IMG/VR virus record: IMGVR_UViG_3300029855_000069
Length of the DNA: 5,572 bases
Strand: one strand, 5' to 3'
Source of the DNA: a virus
Shown here: one piece after another, positions 1-5,572 of the stretch
Layout: every line of letters begins with the position of its first letter
Numbering within the stretch: position 1 is the first letter of the stretch
Translations under genes and position numbers: made by a program
The notes under the pieces: generated by a model
The model's input: the letters and a program-made list of their open reading frames with translations, nothing else
What the model was told of the DNA's origin: nothing
Databases searched by the model: none

Positions 1-99
1 CTGAAAAACCGCATGGTTGTCACTTTCGTTTTCAGGTCGTACCAGTTCTACTTGATGTAACTGGTACGACTGACACCAATGTTGAATTGGTGTACTAAA
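1..99. repeat. Terminal direct repeat, exact copy of 5474..5572. It is an artefact or indicator of a circular genome (unit length ~5473 nt).
   Basis: Bases 1..99 (ctgaaaaaccgcatgg...ggtgtactaaa) recur verbatim at 5474..5572, which ends exactly at the window end. Confidence 0.9.
36..70 (+). promoter_or_regulatory. Putative rolling-circle origin hairpin: 12-bp perfect stem (36..47 / 59..70) with an 11-nt loop CTACTTGATGT containing the phiX174-like nick core ACTTG|AT.
   Basis: gtcgtaccagtt (36..47) is the exact reverse complement of aactggtacgac (59..70). Loop 48..58 resembles the phiX ori CAACTTG|ATATTAATAAC. The hairpin lies in the intergenic region between VP3 and VP1. Confidence 0.55.
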
Positions 100-124
100 T
101 ACAGATGCTAGGAGATGTATAAAA

Positions 125-1825
125 ATGTCAAAAAGAGCTACTCAGCACAGCTTTGCTATAAGCCCGCAAAATCAGATTCCCCGTTCTTCTTTCAAGCGTT
201 CGCATACAGTAAAAACCACACTGGATGCAGGTCGACTTGTTCCGTTTTATATCGATGAAGTCTACCCCGGTGATACTTTTAATTGTAAGGCGACGCTTTT
301 TGGTCGTATGGCTACGCCGATTGTTCCGGCGATGGATAATGCTTATATGGATACTTTTTTCTTTTTCGTTCCGTACCGTCTTCTTTGGAAGCACTGGAAG
401 GAGTTTAATGGCGAAAATCCGCTTGCCGGTTATCAGAGTACAGAGTATGAAGTACCGCAGATGACGGCCACCAATGCGCAGGTTCAGACGCTTTGGGACT
501 ATTTCGGTTTTCCGACCGATGTAAAAAATAAGCTTTCGGTTTCTGCTTTCCCTTTTAGAGCGTATTGGAAGATTTATAATGATTGGTTCCGCGACGAAAA
601 TCTTCAAAACGCTGTGTCCATTCAGACCGGTGCGCCGCTTTCTTCGACTTCCTCCGAAGATGATGCATATGGTGGTGATGCTACGCAGGATGCTACGACT
701 GCACAGTGTTTCTATCGTGGTAAGCGACATGACTATTTCACAAGCGCTTTACCGTGGCCGCAGAAAGGCCCTGGTGTAGAATTGCCGCTTGGCCAAACTG
801 CTTCTGTTTCCGGCTCTTTACCTCTTAGTGCCTATGCTTATGTTCCTAAGCCGACGAGTGATTGGTCGGTAGATAGTCCGAGTTTGTATGTCCATTCAGA
901 ATCTAATGCTTTTCAAACTCCTGATTTTTCTCCTGTAAATTTGCAAGGCGCCATTAAAGTTCCTTCTAATAGTGGTCCAATTACTCAAGATGTTCCTTTG
1001 CAGCTTAATATAGCTGGTACTGCTGATGCAACTAAAGCTACGGTCGATTTGTCTAGTGCGACAGCGATTACTATTAACAGCTTGCGTTCTGCATTTGCGC
1101 TTCAACGTTTTTATGAAAAAGATGCTCGTGGTGGTACCCGATATACTGAAATTATTCGCTCACATTTCGGTATTATTTCGCCTGATGCTCGGTTGCAACG
1201 CAGTGAGTATCTCGGTGGCGATTCAACACCAATTATGTTCAATCCTGTTCAACAGACGTCTTCTACGGACACTACGTCCCCGCAGGGCAACTTGTCTGCG
1301 TATGCTTTAATGAGTACGCGTGTTCACGGCTTTAATAAGTCGTTTACCGAACATGGAATTGTGATCGGTTTATGTAATATTCGTACCGATTTAAGTTATC
1401 AGCAAGGCATTAATAAGACCTGGCTTAGACAAACCCGTGAAGAATTCTATTGGCCTACCTTCGCCCATCTTGGCGAACAAGCTGTTCTTAATAAAGAAAT
1501 TTACGCGCAGGGTACTGAGAGTGACGACCAAGTTTTTGGTTATCAAGAACGTTATGCTGAATGCCGTTACCATCCTTCTATCATTACCGGCAAGATGCGC
1601 TCGACATATGCACAGAGTACGGATGTATGGCATTTTGCGCAAAAATTCGATGCGCTTCCCGCTCTCAATGGTGAGTTCATCCAAGACCAGGCCAGCTATC
1701 AAGCTATTAAGCGTATTAGTGCGGTGCAGTCTGAACCCCAGTTTTATCTTGATGCGTATTTAGATTTAAAATGTGCTCGCCCGATGCCGGTTTACGGCGT
1801 CCCTGGCATGCTTGATCACTTCTAA
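125..1825 (+). CDS. VP1: Microviridae major capsid protein VP1 (phiX174 F-protein family), 566 aa
   Basis: The length is typical of gokushovirus VP1. The N-terminal PRSSFKRSH.VKTTLDAGRLVP and the LQRFYEKDARGGTRYTEIIRSHFG block are hallmark gokushovirus VP1 motifs. AGGAG Shine-Dalgarno lies 10 nt upstream of the ATG. Confidence 0.95.
   Translation: MSKRATQHSFAISPQNQIPRSSFKRSHTVKTTLDAGRLVPFYIDEVYPGDTFNCKATLFGRMATPIVPAMDNAYMDTFFFFVPYRLLWKHWKEFNGENPLAGYQSTEYEVPQMTATNAQVQTLWDYFGFPTDVKNKLSVSAFPFRAYWKIYNDWFRDENLQNAVSIQTGAPLSSTSSEDDAYGGDATQDATTAQCFYRGKRHDYFTSALPWPQKGPGVELPLGQTASVSGSLPLSAYAYVPKPTSDWSVDSPSLYVHSESNAFQTPDFSPVNLQGAIKVPSNSGPITQDVPLQLNIAGTADATKATVDLSSATAITINSLRSAFALQRFYEKDARGGTRYTEIIRSHFGIISPDARLQRSEYLGGDSTPIMFNPVQQTSSTDTTSPQGNLSAYALMSTRVHGFNKSFTEHGIVIGLCNIRTDLSYQQGINKTWLRQTREEFYWPTFAHLGEQAVLNKEIYAQGTESDDQVFGYQERYAECRYHPSIITGKMRSTYAQSTDVWHFAQKFDALPALNGEFIQDQASYQAIKRISAVQSEPQFYLDAYLDLKCARPMPVYGVPGMLDHF
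767..1069 (+). other. Low-complexity S/T/A/P-rich insertion region inside VP1; probable hypervariable surface ('mushroom'-type) loop
   Basis: VP1 residues ~215-315 (GQTASVSGSLPLSAYAYVPKPTSDWSVDSPS...TADATKATVDLSSATAI) lack the conserved-core character and lie between conserved blocks, as for the gokushovirus VP1 IN5 insertion. Confidence 0.45.
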
Positions 1826-1841
1826 AAGGAGTTGATGATAT

Positions 1842-2885
1842 ATGAGTTTCTTATCGTCGGTTGCCGGCGCTGCACTCGGCATTTGGTCGGGTAATAAATC
1901 GGCTAATGCCCAGGCTGCACTTTCGCGTGAGCAAATGCAATGGCAATCACAAGAAGCACAAAAAACTCGCGATTGGCAAGAAAAAATGTCTTCTACGGCT
2001 CATCAGCGTGAGATCGAAGATCTGCGTAAAGCTGGATTAAATCCCATGTTGTCGGCAATGGGCGGTAACGGTGCTAGTACGCCTGCTGGTGCGACTGCTA
2101 GCTACTCGTCTAATGCGTATACTGGTTATGGTTCTGATGTGTCTAACGGTATTAATGCGATGTCCGGTATGTATTCTGCGAAGACAAATCGAAAGATTCA
2201 ACAGCAGCAAGAAAAAAACTTGGAACAGCAAAATTTGAATCTTAGTGCAGATACATATAAAAAGACGCAGGAAGGTCGTGCTGCATCGACTGAAGCAGAT
2301 TATAAAAAGGCTATGTTAGAGACTCAATTAGTGCAGCTACTTGCTGATGCGAATAATTTACAAGCTAACGCTGATTTTACAAACGGCGTCGGCACTGCGA
2401 AAGCACAGTCTGAGATTGATAAATACAATGCTGAAACTCGGTATATTAGTGGCCCGCAGACGGATGTCGCGAATGCGACGACTGCGAATTTAGGAGCGCA
2501 GACAAACCGGATTAATGCTTTACTGCCACATGAAATCGCGAAAATTGATAGCGATATCGAAAAAAATGTACATGAAATTTTACGAATTGATTCTGAAACG
2601 AGTTTAAATCAGGTTAAAATGATGACTGAAAAGTATGTGCAAGGCGAACTTAGTGCTCGATCGCTTGTTGAGTATTTGCAAGCTAAAGGTCAGACTGAAG
2701 ATAATGCGCTAAAGTTTGTAAATCGTGTGCGCGCTCAGATAGATCTAAAACAGTATCAAATTCAGAATCGCTATTCTGGTGTTACTCCGCAAGGCCCTTA
2801 TGAACTTTTGGGCCGCATTCTTGGTAATGCGAAAGGTCTTGTTGATGCTTCCCCGTTTGGCCTTGTCACGCAGGTTTTTAAGTGA
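1842..2885 (+). CDS. VP2: Minor capsid / DNA pilot protein VP2 (H-protein analogue), 347 aa
   Basis: Hydrophobic N-terminus (FLSSVAGAALGIWSG), a Q/A/N-rich coiled-coil-like body and the conserved HQREIEDLRKAGLNPML segment typical of gokushovirus VP2. It lies immediately after VP1. AAGGAGTTGAT Shine-Dalgarno lies 10 nt before the ATG. Confidence 0.85.
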   Translation: MSFLSSVAGAALGIWSGNKSANAQAALSREQMQWQSQEAQKTRDWQEKMSSTAHQREIEDLRKAGLNPMLSAMGGNGASTPAGATASYSSNAYTGYGSDVSNGINAMSGMYSAKTNRKIQQQQEKNLEQQNLNLSADTYKKTQEGRAASTEADYKKAMLETQLVQLLADANNLQANADFTNGVGTAKAQSEIDKYNAETRYISGPQTDVANATTANLGAQTNRINALLPHEIAKIDSDIEKNVHEILRIDSETSLNQVKMMTEKYVQGELSARSLVEYLQAKGQTEDNALKFVNRVRAQIDLKQYQIQNRYSGVTPQGPYELLGRILGNAKGLVDASPFGLVTQVFK

Positions 2886-2981
2886 TCTCGGTTTTCCCTT
2901 GATTGCCCTGGTGAAATTGTTTTACTCTCGTATTAGTGGAACGGTGACGTACTGTGGCGTTTAGCCTATCATCCCTTTCTA

Positions 2982-3010
2982 TTGACATTCTGTTAGATAT
3001 ATGTTAGAAT
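2982..3010 (+). promoter_or_regulatory. Near-consensus sigma70-type promoter: TTGACA (2982..2987), 17-nt spacer, TAGAAT (3005..3010)
   Basis: Perfect -35 hexamer, a 5/6 match to the -10 hexamer and the optimal 17-nt spacer, about 20 nt upstream of the start of the small-gene/rep cluster (ATG 3030). Confidence 0.55.
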
Positions 3011-3029
3011 AATAACAGAGGTGATAGAT

Positions 3030-3194
3030 ATGAGAAAAACTCGTAGTATTTATTGTTCAGATGATGAGTACAAGCATCTGAAGATCGCATTACGTTTTAT
3101 GCGCGTTTTTGATGCGCTGTCGGTTGATGACTTGTCTGATGAGCAGCGGTCTAAGTATTTCCTGGAAATCATAAAAGGAGATGATGAAGAATGA
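3030..3194 (+). CDS. Hypothetical small acidic protein, 54 aa (MRKTRSIYCSDDEYKHLKIALRFMRVFDALSVDDLSDEQRSKYFLEIIKGDDEE)
   Basis: Translated by hand; not in the supplied ORF track. AGAGG Shine-Dalgarno lies 8 nt upstream and the gene is immediately downstream of the promoter. Its stop TGA overlaps the ATG of the next gene (ATGA). Confidence 0.5.
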   Translation: MRKTRSIYCSDDEYKHLKIALRFMRVFDALSVDDLSDEQRSKYFLEIIKGDDEE

Positions 3195-3286
3195 AAGTTG
3201 GTACTCCGGTCGCGTTGTTTTGTTGGCTTGTACTAGCCATTTTAGTTGTCTCCTTAGTGATTAGTATATTGGATGTTTTTTTATAA
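3191..3286 (+). CDS. 31-aa single-pass transmembrane peptide (MKVGTPVALFCWLVLAILVVSLVISILDVFL); candidate lysis/membrane-targeting peptide
   Basis: AAGGAG (3175..3180) lies exactly 10 nt before ATG 3191, the same spacing as five other genes in this genome. ATGA overlap with the upstream gene. Its stop TAA overlaps the Shine-Dalgarno box of the downstream gene. About 22 consecutive hydrophobic residues. Confidence 0.5.
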   Translation: MKVGTPVALFCWLVLAILVVSLVISILDVFL

Positions 3287-3300
3287 GGAGTTGATGTTGT

Positions 3301-3414
3301 ATGAAACGACAAAAAATGAGTAAAAAAAAGAGTAATAAAAACTTCCGTCGCGGAATGACAGTTAATCCGAAAAATAAGCGCCCCATCCCCATGCGCGGTG
3401 GTTTTAGAATGTAA
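3301..3414 (+). CDS. 37-aa highly basic peptide (MKRQKMSKKKSNKNFRRGMTVNPKNKRPIPMRGGFRM); DNA-binding/packaging protein analogous to phiX174 J / gokushovirus ORF8
   Basis: 14 of 37 residues are K/R. AAGGAGTTGAT Shine-Dalgarno with 10-nt spacing. The gene sits directly upstream of rep. Missed by the ORF track because of its size. Confidence 0.6.
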   Translation: MKRQKMSKKKSNKNFRRGMTVNPKNKRPIPMRGGFRM

Positions 3415-3448
3415 TGTTAGTTTTGATTTTCCCTGGAGTTGATTTGTC

Positions 3449-4366
3449 ATGCCATGCTATCATCCTATTCCAATGTGGTATAGTAAAGAGATAAATAAAG
3501 AAACTGGCAAACGCTCTTTGACGGCGAATTATGGTAATGCCTGGCGCCCACTTGGTCGGCTTCCGGAGACAATTTATGTTCCGTGTGGCCAGTGTGTCGG
3601 CTGTCGGCTTGAGTATAGCCGACAGTGGGCCATGCGTTGTGTACATGAGTTTGAAACAGCCGGTCGTGTTGGATCCTTCCTCACTCTTACATATAGTCCC
3701 GAACATTTGCCGGAAGATGGTAGAGTTCATAAAGACGTTTTTCAAAAGTTCATGAAACGTCTTCGAAAACGGTTTGGTAGCGGCCTTCGCTTCTTCGCTT
3801 GTGGTGAATACGGCCACAAGTTTAAAAGACCGCACTATCATGCAGTTATTTTTGGCTTGCGATTCCCGGATTTAATGATCCATACAGTTAAGCACGGTTT
3901 CCAGTATTATCGTAGTCCTACATTGGAGAAGTTGTGGCCCTACGGATTCAGCTTGATCGGCAGCGTTACGTTTGAGTCGTGCGCTTATGTTGCTCGTTAT
4001 GTGATGAAAAAGCAGAAAGGTGATAATGTTGACGAATCTTTGCAGCCGTTTGTCTTAATGTCACGCATGCCAGGCCTTGGCCATGATTGGTATGAAAAGT
4101 ATAAAAGCCAGGTTTATCCGAACGACTTCATTGTCGTCCGTGACGGTGTGACTTGTAAGCCCCCCGCATATTATGATTCCTTGTTAGAAAAGGACGATCC
4201 CGATTTGTATGAGAAAGTTAAAGAGGCCCGCCAAGACAAGTATCGTCGTGACGAGTCAATGACAACGGAAGAGTATGAAATTGCTCAGATCCAAGAGCGG
4301 TTAAAGGCTCGTAAGCTAACTAAACTTGTACGCCGGCTGCATGACGATGTAGATATGTACGAGTAA
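3449..4366 (+). CDS. VP4: Replication initiation protein VP4 (rolling-circle Rep, phiX174 gpA superfamily), 305 aa
   Basis: RCR motif I FLTLTY, motif II PHYHAVIFG (HUH) and motif III AYVARYVMKK (Y-x-x-x-Y catalytic tyrosines, cf. phiX gpA), plus the CGQCVGC cysteine cluster conserved in gokushovirus VP4. GGAGTTGAT Shine-Dalgarno lies 10 nt upstream. Confidence 0.93.
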   Translation: MPCYHPIPMWYSKEINKETGKRSLTANYGNAWRPLGRLPETIYVPCGQCVGCRLEYSRQWAMRCVHEFETAGRVGSFLTLTYSPEHLPEDGRVHKDVFQKFMKRLRKRFGSGLRFFACGEYGHKFKRPHYHAVIFGLRFPDLMIHTVKHGFQYYRSPTLEKLWPYGFSLIGSVTFESCAYVARYVMKKQKGDNVDESLQPFVLMSRMPGLGHDWYEKYKSQVYPNDFIVVRDGVTCKPPAYYDSLLEKDDPDLYEKVKEARQDKYRRDESMTTEEYEIAQIQERLKARKLTKLVRRLHDDVDMYE

Positions 4367-4380
4367 ATGTCATTTGACAT
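4365..4380. promoter_or_regulatory. Palindrome AATGTCA-TT-TGACATT overlapping the rep stop codon; possible operator or weak terminator
   Basis: Perfect 7-bp inverted repeat with a 2-nt spacer, followed by TTT. TTGACA (4374..4379) inside it is also a perfect -35 hexamer. Confidence 0.35.
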
Positions 4381-4384
4381 TTTG

Positions 4385-4393
4385 CCCCCCCCC
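4385..4393. repeat. C9 homopolymer tract
   Basis: Nine consecutive C residues, counted directly in the sequence. Confidence 0.9.
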
Positions 4394-4412
4394 GTATGGT
4401 ACTGTTGTACTA

Positions 4413-4486
4413 GCGAGAGGGCATTTTTTTTTAAATTCAAAAAGAGCGATCCTTTTCTGTTACTTCAAGCAACACTTCCCTCTCGC
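4413..4486. repeat. 9-bp inverted repeat gcgagaggg / ccctctcgc flanking a 56-nt AT-rich spacer that contains the T9 tract
   Basis: 4413..4421 is the reverse complement of 4478..4486. Together with the adjacent 10-bp palindrome acatatatgt (4504..4513) it marks a structured non-coding region. Confidence 0.6.
4424..4432. repeat. T9 homopolymer tract
   Basis: Nine consecutive T residues, counted directly in the sequence. Confidence 0.9.
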
Positions 4487-4736
4487 GAAAGGAGGTATTT
4501 TGCACATATATGTACATCGGTCGTATGAATCTTTTGACCAGGTAGATTTGTGGCAAATTTATCGTAAAGTGCGTAATACTGATATTACGGATGTTATTTG
4601 TTTTTCGCCTTGGAAGACAAAGTATTTCCACGGAAGGAGTGAACTTAGAAATCACTATTCTCATGCGTATCTTACACGTTATTGTCGCCGCTGTTTTTGA
4701 TTTTATTCTTAATATTTTAAAAGGAGTTGTTACGAA

Positions 4737-5015
4737 ATGCTTAAGGTTTATTCAATCTTGGATGATAAGGCACAGTGCTTTAATACGCCGTACTTTGCCC
4801 AGAATGACCTGGTTGCTAGCCGTTCTTTTAGTGATTTGTGTAATGATAGTCGGAGTCTTGTTAGTCAGCACCTCGGCGATTTCCACTTGTATTGTCTAGG
4901 TGAGTTTGATGATGAAAAAGGTTTTCTCAAGCCTTATGATGTGCCTGCTTTTATTTGCCATGCAATGCAATGCGCTAATGTTGAAAGGAGCGAAGCGAAT
5001 GGAGATACGCTCTAG
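4737..5015 (+). CDS. Hypothetical protein, 92 aa; possibly the small ORF5/VP5-type protein of gokushoviruses (function unknown)
   Basis: AAGGAGTTGTT Shine-Dalgarno exactly 10 nt before the ATG. Its 3' end overlaps the VP3 start by 17 nt in another frame. No recognisable motif. Confidence 0.5.
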   Translation: MLKVYSILDDKAQCFNTPYFAQNDLVASRSFSDLCNDSRSLVSQHLGDFHLYCLGEFDDEKGFLKPYDVPAFICHAMQCANVERSEANGDTL

Positions 5016-5436
5016 ATATAATGCTGGTACTCGTGAGGGTTGGAAATCGTCTGTCCCTTCCATGACGCAGCAGCAGTTTAAGGACGAAGCAGATATCAAT
5101 TATATCGTTTCAATGTACGATTCTTCCGGCGTTATGCCGACTTTCCATGGTGACGGTCAGCCGGCGCAGCCTGTTTTCGGTGATTTTGCATCGCTGCCGG
5201 ATAATGCACAGGAGATGTACAATCGTATGATAGAAGCTAAAAGTAACTTTGACAATTTGCCCTTGGACGTTCGTAAGCGTTTTAATTATGACCCTGCTGC
5301 TTTCTTAGAGTTTGTCGATAATCCGGAAAATTTAGATGAGCTCGTGGCCATGGGTCTTGCTACTAAGACTGTTATTAAGTCTGATAATCATACGGAAAAT
5401 ACGGATAATAATGCAGGCGATAAAGCCAATGGATAA
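4999..5436 (+). CDS. VP3: Internal scaffolding protein VP3, 145 aa from ATG 4999 (the ORF-track start at 4900 is probably too far upstream)
   Basis: Contains the conserved gokushovirus VP3 motifs SMTQQQFKDEADINYIV and RKRFNYDPAAFLEFVDNPENL. AAGGAG (4985..4990) lies 8 nt before ATG 4999; the upstream ATG at 4900 has no Shine-Dalgarno box and lies inside the 92-aa gene. Confidence 0.85.
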   Translation: MEIRSRYNAGTREGWKSSVPSMTQQQFKDEADINYIVSMYDSSGVMPTFHGDGQPAQPVFGDFASLPDNAQEMYNRMIEAKSNFDNLPLDVRKRFNYDPAAFLEFVDNPENLDELVAMGLATKTVIKSDNHTENTDNNAGDKANG

Positions 5437-5473
5437 GCATTTTGTCAATAAATGTCACTTTTTCTCAGAAAAG

Positions 5474-5572
5474 CTGAAAAACCGCATGGTTGTCACTTTC
5501 GTTTTCAGGTCGTACCAGTTCTACTTGATGTAACTGGTACGACTGACACCAATGTTGAATTGGTGTACTAAA
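5474..5572. repeat. Second copy of the terminal redundancy (identical to 1..99). It includes a second copy of the ori hairpin at 5509..5543.
   Basis: Exact 99-nt identity with the window start. Confidence 0.9.

Follow-up and report, generated by a model that had tools for sequence, protein, structure and literature searches.

An apparently complete gokushovirus genome from a gut metagenome and a putative viral-strand origin hairpin in its VP3–VP1 spacer

Gokushoviruses (Microviridae, Gokushovirinae) are small phages that package single-stranded DNA in a tailless T=1 virion. Thousands of their genomes are publicly available, and to our knowledge their replication has hardly been studied experimentally. 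In replication systems driven by HUH-type replication initiators (Reps), such as those of circular Rep-encoding single-stranded DNA (CRESS-DNA) viruses and rolling-circle plasmids, the standard arrangement is a nick site displayed in the loop of a hairpin. In phiX174 (Bullavirinae), the viral-strand origin CAACTTG^ATATTAATAAC is cleaved between G4305 and A4306 (bioRxiv 10.64898/2026.07.25.740675; GenBank rep_origin), and Tyr343 and Tyr347 of protein A are catalytic (bioRxiv 10.64898/2026.07.25.740675). The phiX174 origin lies within gene A and is not a hairpin. The cultured Chp2 (Chlamydiamicrovirus) has a genome of 4,563 nucleotides (nt) with the gene order VP1-VP2-VP3-ORF8-VP4-VP5, and a hairpin with the loop TACTTGAT is located just downstream of its VP3 gene (layout CTAGCGTATAACAG-TCTACTTGATC-TGTTATACGCTAG). 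The sequence analyzed here is the IMG/VR record IMGVR_UViG_3300029855_000069 (5,572 nt, G+C content 43%); this whole stretch of DNA is called the window, and coordinates refer to it unless stated otherwise. It is read as the complete, circularly permuted genome of a lytic-type gokushovirus from a gut metagenome (probability about 0.9), and the hairpin at positions 36–70, in the spacer between the genes VP3 and VP1, is considered its probable viral-strand origin by analogy with phiX174.

The first-pass annotation of the window, made from the letters alone, had reported that the first 99 nt of the window recur exactly at its end and that the collapsed sequence is a circle of 5,473 nt. Comparison of the window with itself confirmed the overlap (1–99 identical to 5474–5572), and no longer terminal match was present. 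Trimming of one copy left a unit of 5,473 nt. To follow the sequence across the junction, public assemblies were matched via the window's own VP1 and VP4 proteins. Five further assemblies (L148–L152: European Nucleotide Archive [ENA] contigs named k141, k127, and k119, one ENA scaffold, and one Logan contig) had the identical 5,473-nt unique sequence, with 0 mismatches to the collapsed window. Their terminal overlaps were also exact and measured 141, 127, 119, 55, and 30 nt, the first three corresponding to the k given in the contig name, and each contig was opened at a different point (starts at window coordinates 3563, 4423, 3517, 1256, and 386, respectively). Since these contigs were opened elsewhere on the circle, the sequence is continuous across the window junction 5473|1, so the reading through the junction that the first-pass annotation had called for was obtained at the assembly level. 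The length of the overlap varied by assembler while the 5,473-nt unit was constant, and the overlap is therefore an artefact of de Bruijn graphs and not a biological repeat; that of the window is consistent with a graph of k = 99. Overlaps of k size (141, 123, 119, 99, and 55 nt) were also found in IMG/VR relatives. More generally, a k-sized terminal repeat can be shown cleanly in silico to be artefactual by comparing assemblies of different k.

The 5,473-nt circle, recovered from six assemblies, is within the size range of small circular genomes of this kind (about 4.4–6 kb). Nine genes were annotated on it, all on the plus strand, each preceded by a GGAG-type Shine-Dalgarno motif and together making 90.2% of the circle coding. 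VP1 (125–1825, 566 amino acids [aa]) is the major capsid protein (Pfam Phage_F, E = 3.7e-167, residues 15–562). It was similar to gokushovirus VP1 over its full length, with aa identities of 91% to MT135275, 48% to Chp2 (583 columns), 44% to phiMH2K, and 35% to SpV4, while the similarity to phiX174 F was limited to 24% over 127 aa. Gokushovirus VP1 has a large insertion loop, which phiX174 F lacks. VP2 (1842–2885, plus strand, 347 aa) is the DNA pilot or minor capsid protein (PHROG pilot-protein families, best E = 5.9e-32); it shared 37% identity with Chp2 VP2 over the N-terminal 131 aa and is almost twice as long as the latter. VP5 (4737–5015, plus strand, 92 aa) belongs to the ORF5 family (Phage_ORF5, 3.5e-26; phrog_1670, 1.5e-27) and was 35% identical to Chp2 ORF5. 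The internal scaffolding protein VP3 (4999–5436, plus strand, 145 aa; Chlamy_scaf, 6.1e-35; 36% identity to Chp2) is contained in a longer open reading frame (ORF) at 4900–5436, in which the Chlamy_scaf match begins at residue 42. The ATG at 4999, with a GGAG Shine-Dalgarno motif upstream, is the probable start; VP3 was also called as 145 aa in public assemblies, and it overlaps the end of VP5 by 17 nt.

With the VP2 pilot, the VP3 scaffold, the VP4 Rep, VP5, and a small basic peptide of the DNA-binding type (orf37, similar to Chp2 ORF8), the gene set is that of a gokushovirus. The major spike (G) and external scaffolding (D) proteins of phiX174 have no homologues here: no such family was matched by any scanned ORF, and since the nine genes cover 90.2% of the circle, no room is left for them. 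The presence of VP1, VP2, VP4-Rep, and VP3 on a single strand, as claimed in the first-pass annotation, was borne out by family matches for all core genes, and all matches obtained when VP1 and Rep were compared with references fell within Microviridae/Gokushovirinae. The gene order is VP1-VP2-[orf54, orf31, orf37]-VP4-[spacer with orf66]-VP5-VP3. The order given earlier, VP1-VP2-[small genes]-VP4-[non-coding]-ORF-VP3, was thus correct, except that its "ORF" is VP5 and its "non-coding" part holds orf66 (4500–4700). Its suggested use in placing the phage among lineages was not upheld, as the arrangement is common among gut gokushoviruses (e.g., KT264826) and is not a distinctive marker; varied placement of VP3 has already been documented (PMC9239249). 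Compared with Chp2, the window has a longer genome (5,473 vs 4,563 nt), VP3 between VP5 and VP1, and three extra small genes. Gokushovirus identity and circularity, taken by themselves, are close to certain.

VP4 (3449–4366, plus strand, 305 aa; REP_ORF2-G2P, 5.7e-22; phrog_942, 6.5e-116) was 41% identical to Chp2 VP4. Judged from its motifs, it is an HUH rolling-circle replication initiator with the two-tyrosine motif of the phiX174 protein A type. The uTuT motif 1 (FLTLTY at residue 77), the HUH motif (HYHAVIF at 129), and the Y-x-x-x-Y motif (YVARYVMKK at 180) were all present, and the phiX174 A counterparts of the last two are HFHAVHF at 263 and YVAKYVNKK at 343. The two Reps are therefore alike in H-hydrophobic-H and YVA[KR]YV.KK; the similarity of their sequences amounted to only 29% over 72 aa.

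The VP3–VP1 intergenic region (5437–5572, continuing to 124 on the circle) folds into five hairpins in a row and, across the GenBank relatives compared, was the best conserved DNA of the genome. The nucleotide identity of the region to four of them was 94–97% in three and 88% (over 1–124) in the fourth, against 79–91% for the core genes. As single-stranded DNA (ssDNA), the spacer folded with −28 kcal/mol (z = −7.1), and none of 200 shuffled sequences folded as well. The fourth hairpin (36–70, repeated at 5509–5543, plus strand) is a perfect inverted repeat with a 12-bp stem (GTCGTACCAGTT/AACTGGTACGAC) and the loop CTACTTGATGT at 48–58; it happens to fall within the 99-nt overlap. ACTTGAT occurs once per circle, on the plus strand, and the loop has the core of the phiX174-type origin (CAACTTG^ATA, once, on the viral/coding strand). 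When positions 48–77 were aligned without gaps to the 30-nt phiX174 origin, 18 of the 30 positions matched. By this comparison, Rep cleavage is predicted between G54 and A55. The stem is followed by a conserved TGACACC box (71–77), which overlaps the fifth hairpin (ACACCAAT/ATTGGTGT, 73–93); a GAC-containing 3' box is likewise found in phiX174. The element formed by the box and the fifth hairpin (71–93, plus strand) may be the part of the origin to which Rep binds.

The distribution of the element was followed in several sequence sets. A blastn search with 5437–5572 returned a 40–50-nt element in 49 GenBank microvirus records from pigs, humans, rodents, lemurs, a tortoise, a tunicate, bees, and blackflies, and almost all of these copies are unannotated there. 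By a pattern scan, at least 120 stretches of IMG/VR were found to contain it, nearly all of them contigs of 4–6 kb. All 106 non-redundant copies could be folded, with 7–14 pairs enclosing the motif and 87 distinct stem arms, and a second hairpin with the TGACA box as its 5' arm was present in 52 of the 106. In an alignment of 71 sequences, 11 of the 12 stem pairs were compensatory. The covariation score of the stem was 0.42 compared with 0.06–0.13 for slid controls, and 0.42 was reached in 0 of 500 shuffles. Two further sets were chosen by protein alone, i.e., blind to the motif: 65 distant genomes selected by Rep (VP4 39–50% identical) and 58 loci selected by VP1 in bacterial genome assemblies. 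On the gene strand, 43 of the 65 Rep-selected genomes had a perfect-stem hairpin whose loop contains CTTGAT (1 of 65 when the genomes were shuffled), and a CTTGAT-loop hairpin was present in 36 of the 58 loci; TGACA followed within 12 nt after the stem in 39 of the 43. The element was intergenic in all 107 genomes where its position was scored and was not found within any detected core gene; in 94 of them, it came directly after VP3. A nearly constant loop on a freely covarying stem, the single copy, the phiX174 core, and the catalytic motif shared by the Reps together make a viral-strand origin the best reading of hairpin 36–70.

It is unlikely that the hairpin is instead a transcription terminator, a complementary-strand (priming) origin, or a packaging signal. 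Such roles have precedents in phiX174, where intergenic hairpins serve as terminators and as the PriA-dependent ori(−) (PMC9865509; bioRxiv 10.64898/2026.07.25.740675) and where the viral-strand origin itself is not a hairpin, and the position where the VP3 gene ends, seen in 94 of the 107 genomes, would suit them as well. The inversion of the element relative to the genes in eight contigs would also be easier to accommodate for a signal that acts through structure only. A terminator, however, needs no fixed loop, whereas the loop here is nearly constant while the stem covaries freely, and no T-run follows hairpin 36–70. The core of that loop is the experimentally defined cleavage site of phiX174, the Rep carries the catalytic YVA[KR]YV.KK motif too, and the motif is present in a single copy per genome. 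A nick site in a hairpin loop is, in addition, what is generally known for HUH Reps, so the location of the sequence in a hairpin speaks for the viral-strand origin rather than for the other functions.

Two alternatives concern the genome as a whole. That the 99-nt repeat is biological (a direct terminal repeat, a junction of tandem copies, or part of a prophage integrated in a larger molecule) is extremely improbable. A single sequence looks the same with a direct terminal repeat as with an assembly overlap, and gokushovirus prophages do exist in bacterial genomes, one of them (L158) with two origin hairpins 4,331 nt apart; but a repeat of a direct-terminal-repeat genome would have a length independent of the assembly method, and the lengths observed here shifted (141/127/119/55/30 vs 99 nt) around an unchanged and mismatch-free unit. 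The 99-nt segment was single-copy and internal, between VP3 and VP1, in 7 of 7 GenBank relatives, none of the contigs of the same phage (L148–L152) had flanking bacterial DNA, and a close VP1 relative was absent from 185,579 species genomes and from Escherichia coli. These results agree with the earlier claim that the window is an entire phage and not a fragment of a bacterial chromosome. It is also improbable, if less so, that the phage is temperate and integrates at dif by XerC/XerD in the manner of enterobacterial gokushoviruses, the circle being an excised prophage. This is suggested by distant relatives (50–55% VP1 identity) integrated in large contigs of Phascolarctobacterium faecium, Sutterella, Desulfovibrionaceae, and Intestinirhabdus, which have a similar gene repertoire and origin hairpin; in the prophages of Intestinirhabdus and Phascolarctobacterium, the element reads GGCACAGTT...ACTTGATGT...TGACACC. 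Unlike in these integrated gokushoviruses, neither a dif-like site nor a close integrated copy was found for the window. The search for the 28-nt site gave 0 matches at ≤ 3 mismatches, a weak negative, as the general consensus used is biased towards proteobacteria and may not fit the host. No integrase was found among the nine genes, all of which are accounted for. The palindrome at 4501–4516 was considered as a XerD arm and rejected, showing no resemblance on inspection. There was no sign of lysogeny.

Several points weigh against the reading of the window as a complete genome with a viral-strand origin at 36–70. The origin was assigned by analogy, and no cleavage data for any gokushovirus were found in the literature searched. 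The strict pattern scans forced both the loop and the TGACACC box, so the unbiased evidence consists of the stem covariation and the motif-blind sets only, and about a third of the motif-blind genomes had no detectable perfect-stem version. The inverted orientation of the element in eight contigs is awkward for a simple model in which the sense strand is nicked and packaged. The evidence for circularity is at the assembly level, at least three of the five matching assemblies sharing one human-gut run or sample (ERR912151 / SAMEA3449346, project PRJEB9576). The fold search with the small protein orf54 gave nothing. No paper on the hairpin or on a gokushovirus origin was found, the older literature on Chp1, Chp2, SpV4, and phiMH2K being outside the search; a prior description is possible.

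In the working model that includes the viral-strand origin, the ssDNA would be made duplex by host enzymes after entry, and a conserved sigma-70-type promoter at 2982–3010 would drive orf54-orf31-orf37-VP4. VP4 would then nick the viral strand in the loop of hairpin 36–70, at ACTTG^AT, and rolling-circle synthesis would yield unit-length circles to be packaged with the basic peptide into VP1/VP3 procapsids. A function in lysis or at the membrane would fall most readily to the 31-aa membrane peptide orf31.

More tentatively, and with somewhat more doubt than belief, hairpin 36–70 and the TGACACC box may be the unannotated viral-strand origin of most gokushovirus-like microviruses, homologous to the phiX174 ori+. 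If so, thousands of metagenomic microvirus genomes could have their origin, nick site, and packaged strand assigned by a one-line sequence rule, and the eight contigs with an inverted hairpin would imply lineages in which the strand antisense to the genes is nicked and packaged. We know of no antisense-strand packaging in Microviridae. Confirmed as an origin, the hairpin would be a practical landmark for annotation and would open a way into the replication and strand polarity of gokushoviruses in general. The inverted elements are found in L006 (MK249209, 1193–1220), L042, L058, L099, L121, L124, L132, and L133, in which the ACTTGATGT...TGACACC hairpin occupies its usual place (VP3–VP4 spacer) on the strand opposite all genes.

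Two prophages from bacterial genomes carry related hairpins. In a Bacteroidales prophage of Phocaeicola vulgatus (L208, CP091733), with a VP1 39% identical to that of the window, a 12-bp hairpin with AACTTGATAT in its loop is located at about 7339. This is the exact core of the phiX174 origin, and the nick motif may be shared well beyond gokushoviruses. The integrated gokushovirus of an enterobacterial isolate, Intestinirhabdus alba (L158, NZ_WMJZ01000007), has its two origin-like hairpins at 551 and 4882, an arrangement that suggests tandem or duplicated prophage ends.

The phage is an ordinary member of a well-known group. Its closest relative was an IMG/VR genome (L211; 93.5% nucleotide identity over 94% of the circle), followed by gokushoviruses from pig faeces (about 86%). 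The exact circle is already present in several public assemblies and is 86–93% identical to catalogued relatives; what is gained is a fuller annotation with nine genes, two of which (the 31-aa membrane peptide and the 66-aa gene) are missed or misplaced by standard calls. The VP1 search returned 3,528 matching phage records, all of them microviruses, of which only 7 had ≥ 80% identity. For VP4, 15 contigs were 82–98% identical and the next ≤ 50%, a gap which places the phage in a small, tight gut clade. The order VP1-VP2-[small genes]-VP4-VP5-VP3 is common to the pig-faeces and gut gokushoviruses (MT135275, MT135255, MG945505, MG945441, and IMG/VR UViG_3300045988_126467 with 14 others), as are the J-like peptide, the promoter, and the origin hairpin region (92–97% identity). 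These relatives differ in that orf54 and orf31 occur in two divergent variants and a 70-nt module changes its intergenic location. At least three of the contigs with the exact sequence of the window are from a human gut sample. MG945505 (L001) has an extra Cys-rich ORF of 90 aa (4919–5191 of that record) between VP2 and the small-gene cassette, which the window lacks and which explains part of the difference in genome length.

No host could be named from these comparisons. A single-protein scan of 185,579 species genomes returned no VP1 relatives, and no DNA match was found in 5,426 E. coli genomes. A profile scan of bacterial genomes yielded only relatives of ≤ 55% VP1 identity in several phyla, too distant to name a host; the best integrated ones (50–55%) were in Phascolarctobacterium faecium DSM 14760, a Veillonella bin, Desulfovibrionaceae, Sutterella, and Intestinirhabdus. 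The strong Shine-Dalgarno motifs and the sigma-70-type promoter presumably tell against a host in Bacteroidota. Neither Rfam families (E ≤ 1) nor tRNA or tmRNA genes were found in the window.

The cassette between VP2 and VP4 consists of orf54, orf31, and orf37, which were syntenic in every GenBank relative examined. The first gene, orf54 (3030–3194, plus strand), encodes an acidic, clade-specific protein of 54 aa with two predicted helices (predicted local distance difference test score of the AlphaFold 2 model, 78). Pairwise ratios of nonsynonymous to synonymous substitutions (dN/dS) were 0.25–0.29. Homologues of orf54 were found only on contigs of up to about 5.7 kb (complete ones 5.2–5.7 kb) and were called as 54 aa in 8 of 12 clusters. 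No Pfam or PHROG family matched orf54, and all matches of its two-helix AlphaFold model to the Protein Data Bank by Foldseek had E > 2. A ribbon-helix-helix in its basic N-terminus was a guess only and is not claimed. The start of orf31 (3191–3286, plus strand, 31 aa) overlaps the stop of orf54 by ATGA and is preceded by a strong AAGGAG Shine-Dalgarno motif. The product is a hydrophobic single-pass membrane peptide (grand average of hydropathy, 2.27), and none of the public assemblies of this phage has the gene among its calls; its dN/dS was 0.12–0.36 in pairs that include the window. Both genes occur as two variants, with DNA identity down to about 45–55% in four relatives, and the motifs RS[IV]YC..[DS]EY..[LI]K.AL (orf54) and LFCW...S..D..F (orf31) survive between the variants. 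The third gene, orf37 (3301–3414, plus strand), encodes a basic peptide of 37 aa with an isoelectric point of 12, similar to the J-like protein of phiMH2K (45% identity, E = 4.5e-5) and to phrog_10695 (5.4e-8). The C-terminal MRGG[IF]R is common to Chp2 ORF8. The pairwise dN/dS was about 0.02, and a role as a DNA-binding (packaging) peptide of the J/VP8 type is indicated by these similarities.

Upstream of the cassette and VP4, a candidate sigma-70-type promoter with an upstream TG (TTGACA-N17-TAGAAT, 2982–3010, plus strand) matches 11 of the 12 consensus positions. The hexamers were identical within the window's subgroup (L002, L143). In the other subgroup, where the neighbouring DNA differs, L147 has TTGACT-N17-TATAAT at this position, and L144 and L001 are each one hexamer base off. 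The promoter is preceded by a conserved non-coding module of about 70 nt (2897–2966, plus strand; ...TCGTATTAGTGGAACGGTGACGTAC..GGCGTTTAGCC; 84–89% conserved), which follows VP2 in the window, L002, L143, and L146 and is located in the VP4–VP5 spacer in L001 (1047–1115) and L144 (4712–4781). Region 2886–3020, which contains the module, had no significant structure (fold z = −0.44).

The first approximately 130 nt of the VP4–VP5 region (4367–4499) were conserved in nearly all of the 21 clade members. Just past the VP4 stop, a G+C-rich hairpin (4383–4423) is followed by T9 (4424–4432) on the plus strand; the fold is kept in nearly all of the 21 members, and the element (4383–4432) is a candidate intrinsic (Rho-independent) terminator of the VP4 transcript. 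Its stem is long and imperfect, and a simple terminator scan made no call there. An alternative pairing of CGAGAGGGC (4414–4422) with CCCTCTCG at 4478–4486 was equally conserved and excludes the pairing with the upstream C-run. These mutually exclusive pairings could constitute a switch, with little sequence variation to judge by, and the overall folding energy of 4367–4736 was not significant (z = −1.58).

Most relatives lack about 150 nt that are present in the VP4–VP5 region of the window. On this insert, which only part of the clade has, orf66 (4500–4700, plus strand) starts with TTG 4 nt after AGGAGG and encodes a Cys/aromatic-rich accessory protein of 66 aa. In the clade, orf66 and the insert were found only in the window, in the IMG/VR contig L221, and in two protein clusters (P0013/P0014). 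The gene in L221 has the same length and stop, with ATG at the TTG codon of the window. The 44 differences between the two copies fell 11/11/22 on the three codon positions (dN/dS 0.19), and both alternative frames were full of stops. The homologues in the protein clusters were called as 88 aa from an upstream start; in the window, this start is out of frame owing to a 1-nt difference. No family match was obtained for orf66. The ORFs listed at 4374–4700 (108 aa) and 4591–4899 (102 aa) were rejected in that form: this stretch contains indels in relatives, and conservation is limited to the 66-aa core that begins at 4500. Together with orf54 and orf31, orf66 is a lineage-specific small protein under purifying selection. 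Any role given to these small proteins is doubtful at best; orf31 remains the candidate for a lysis or membrane function.

Four gene starts of the window (1820–1845, 3169–3194, 3279–3304, and 4715–4740) share a 26-nt motif, TTTTAAAAGGAGTTGATG....ATGA, which is longer than a plain Shine-Dalgarno sequence and suggests duplicated or co-selected translation-initiation regions.

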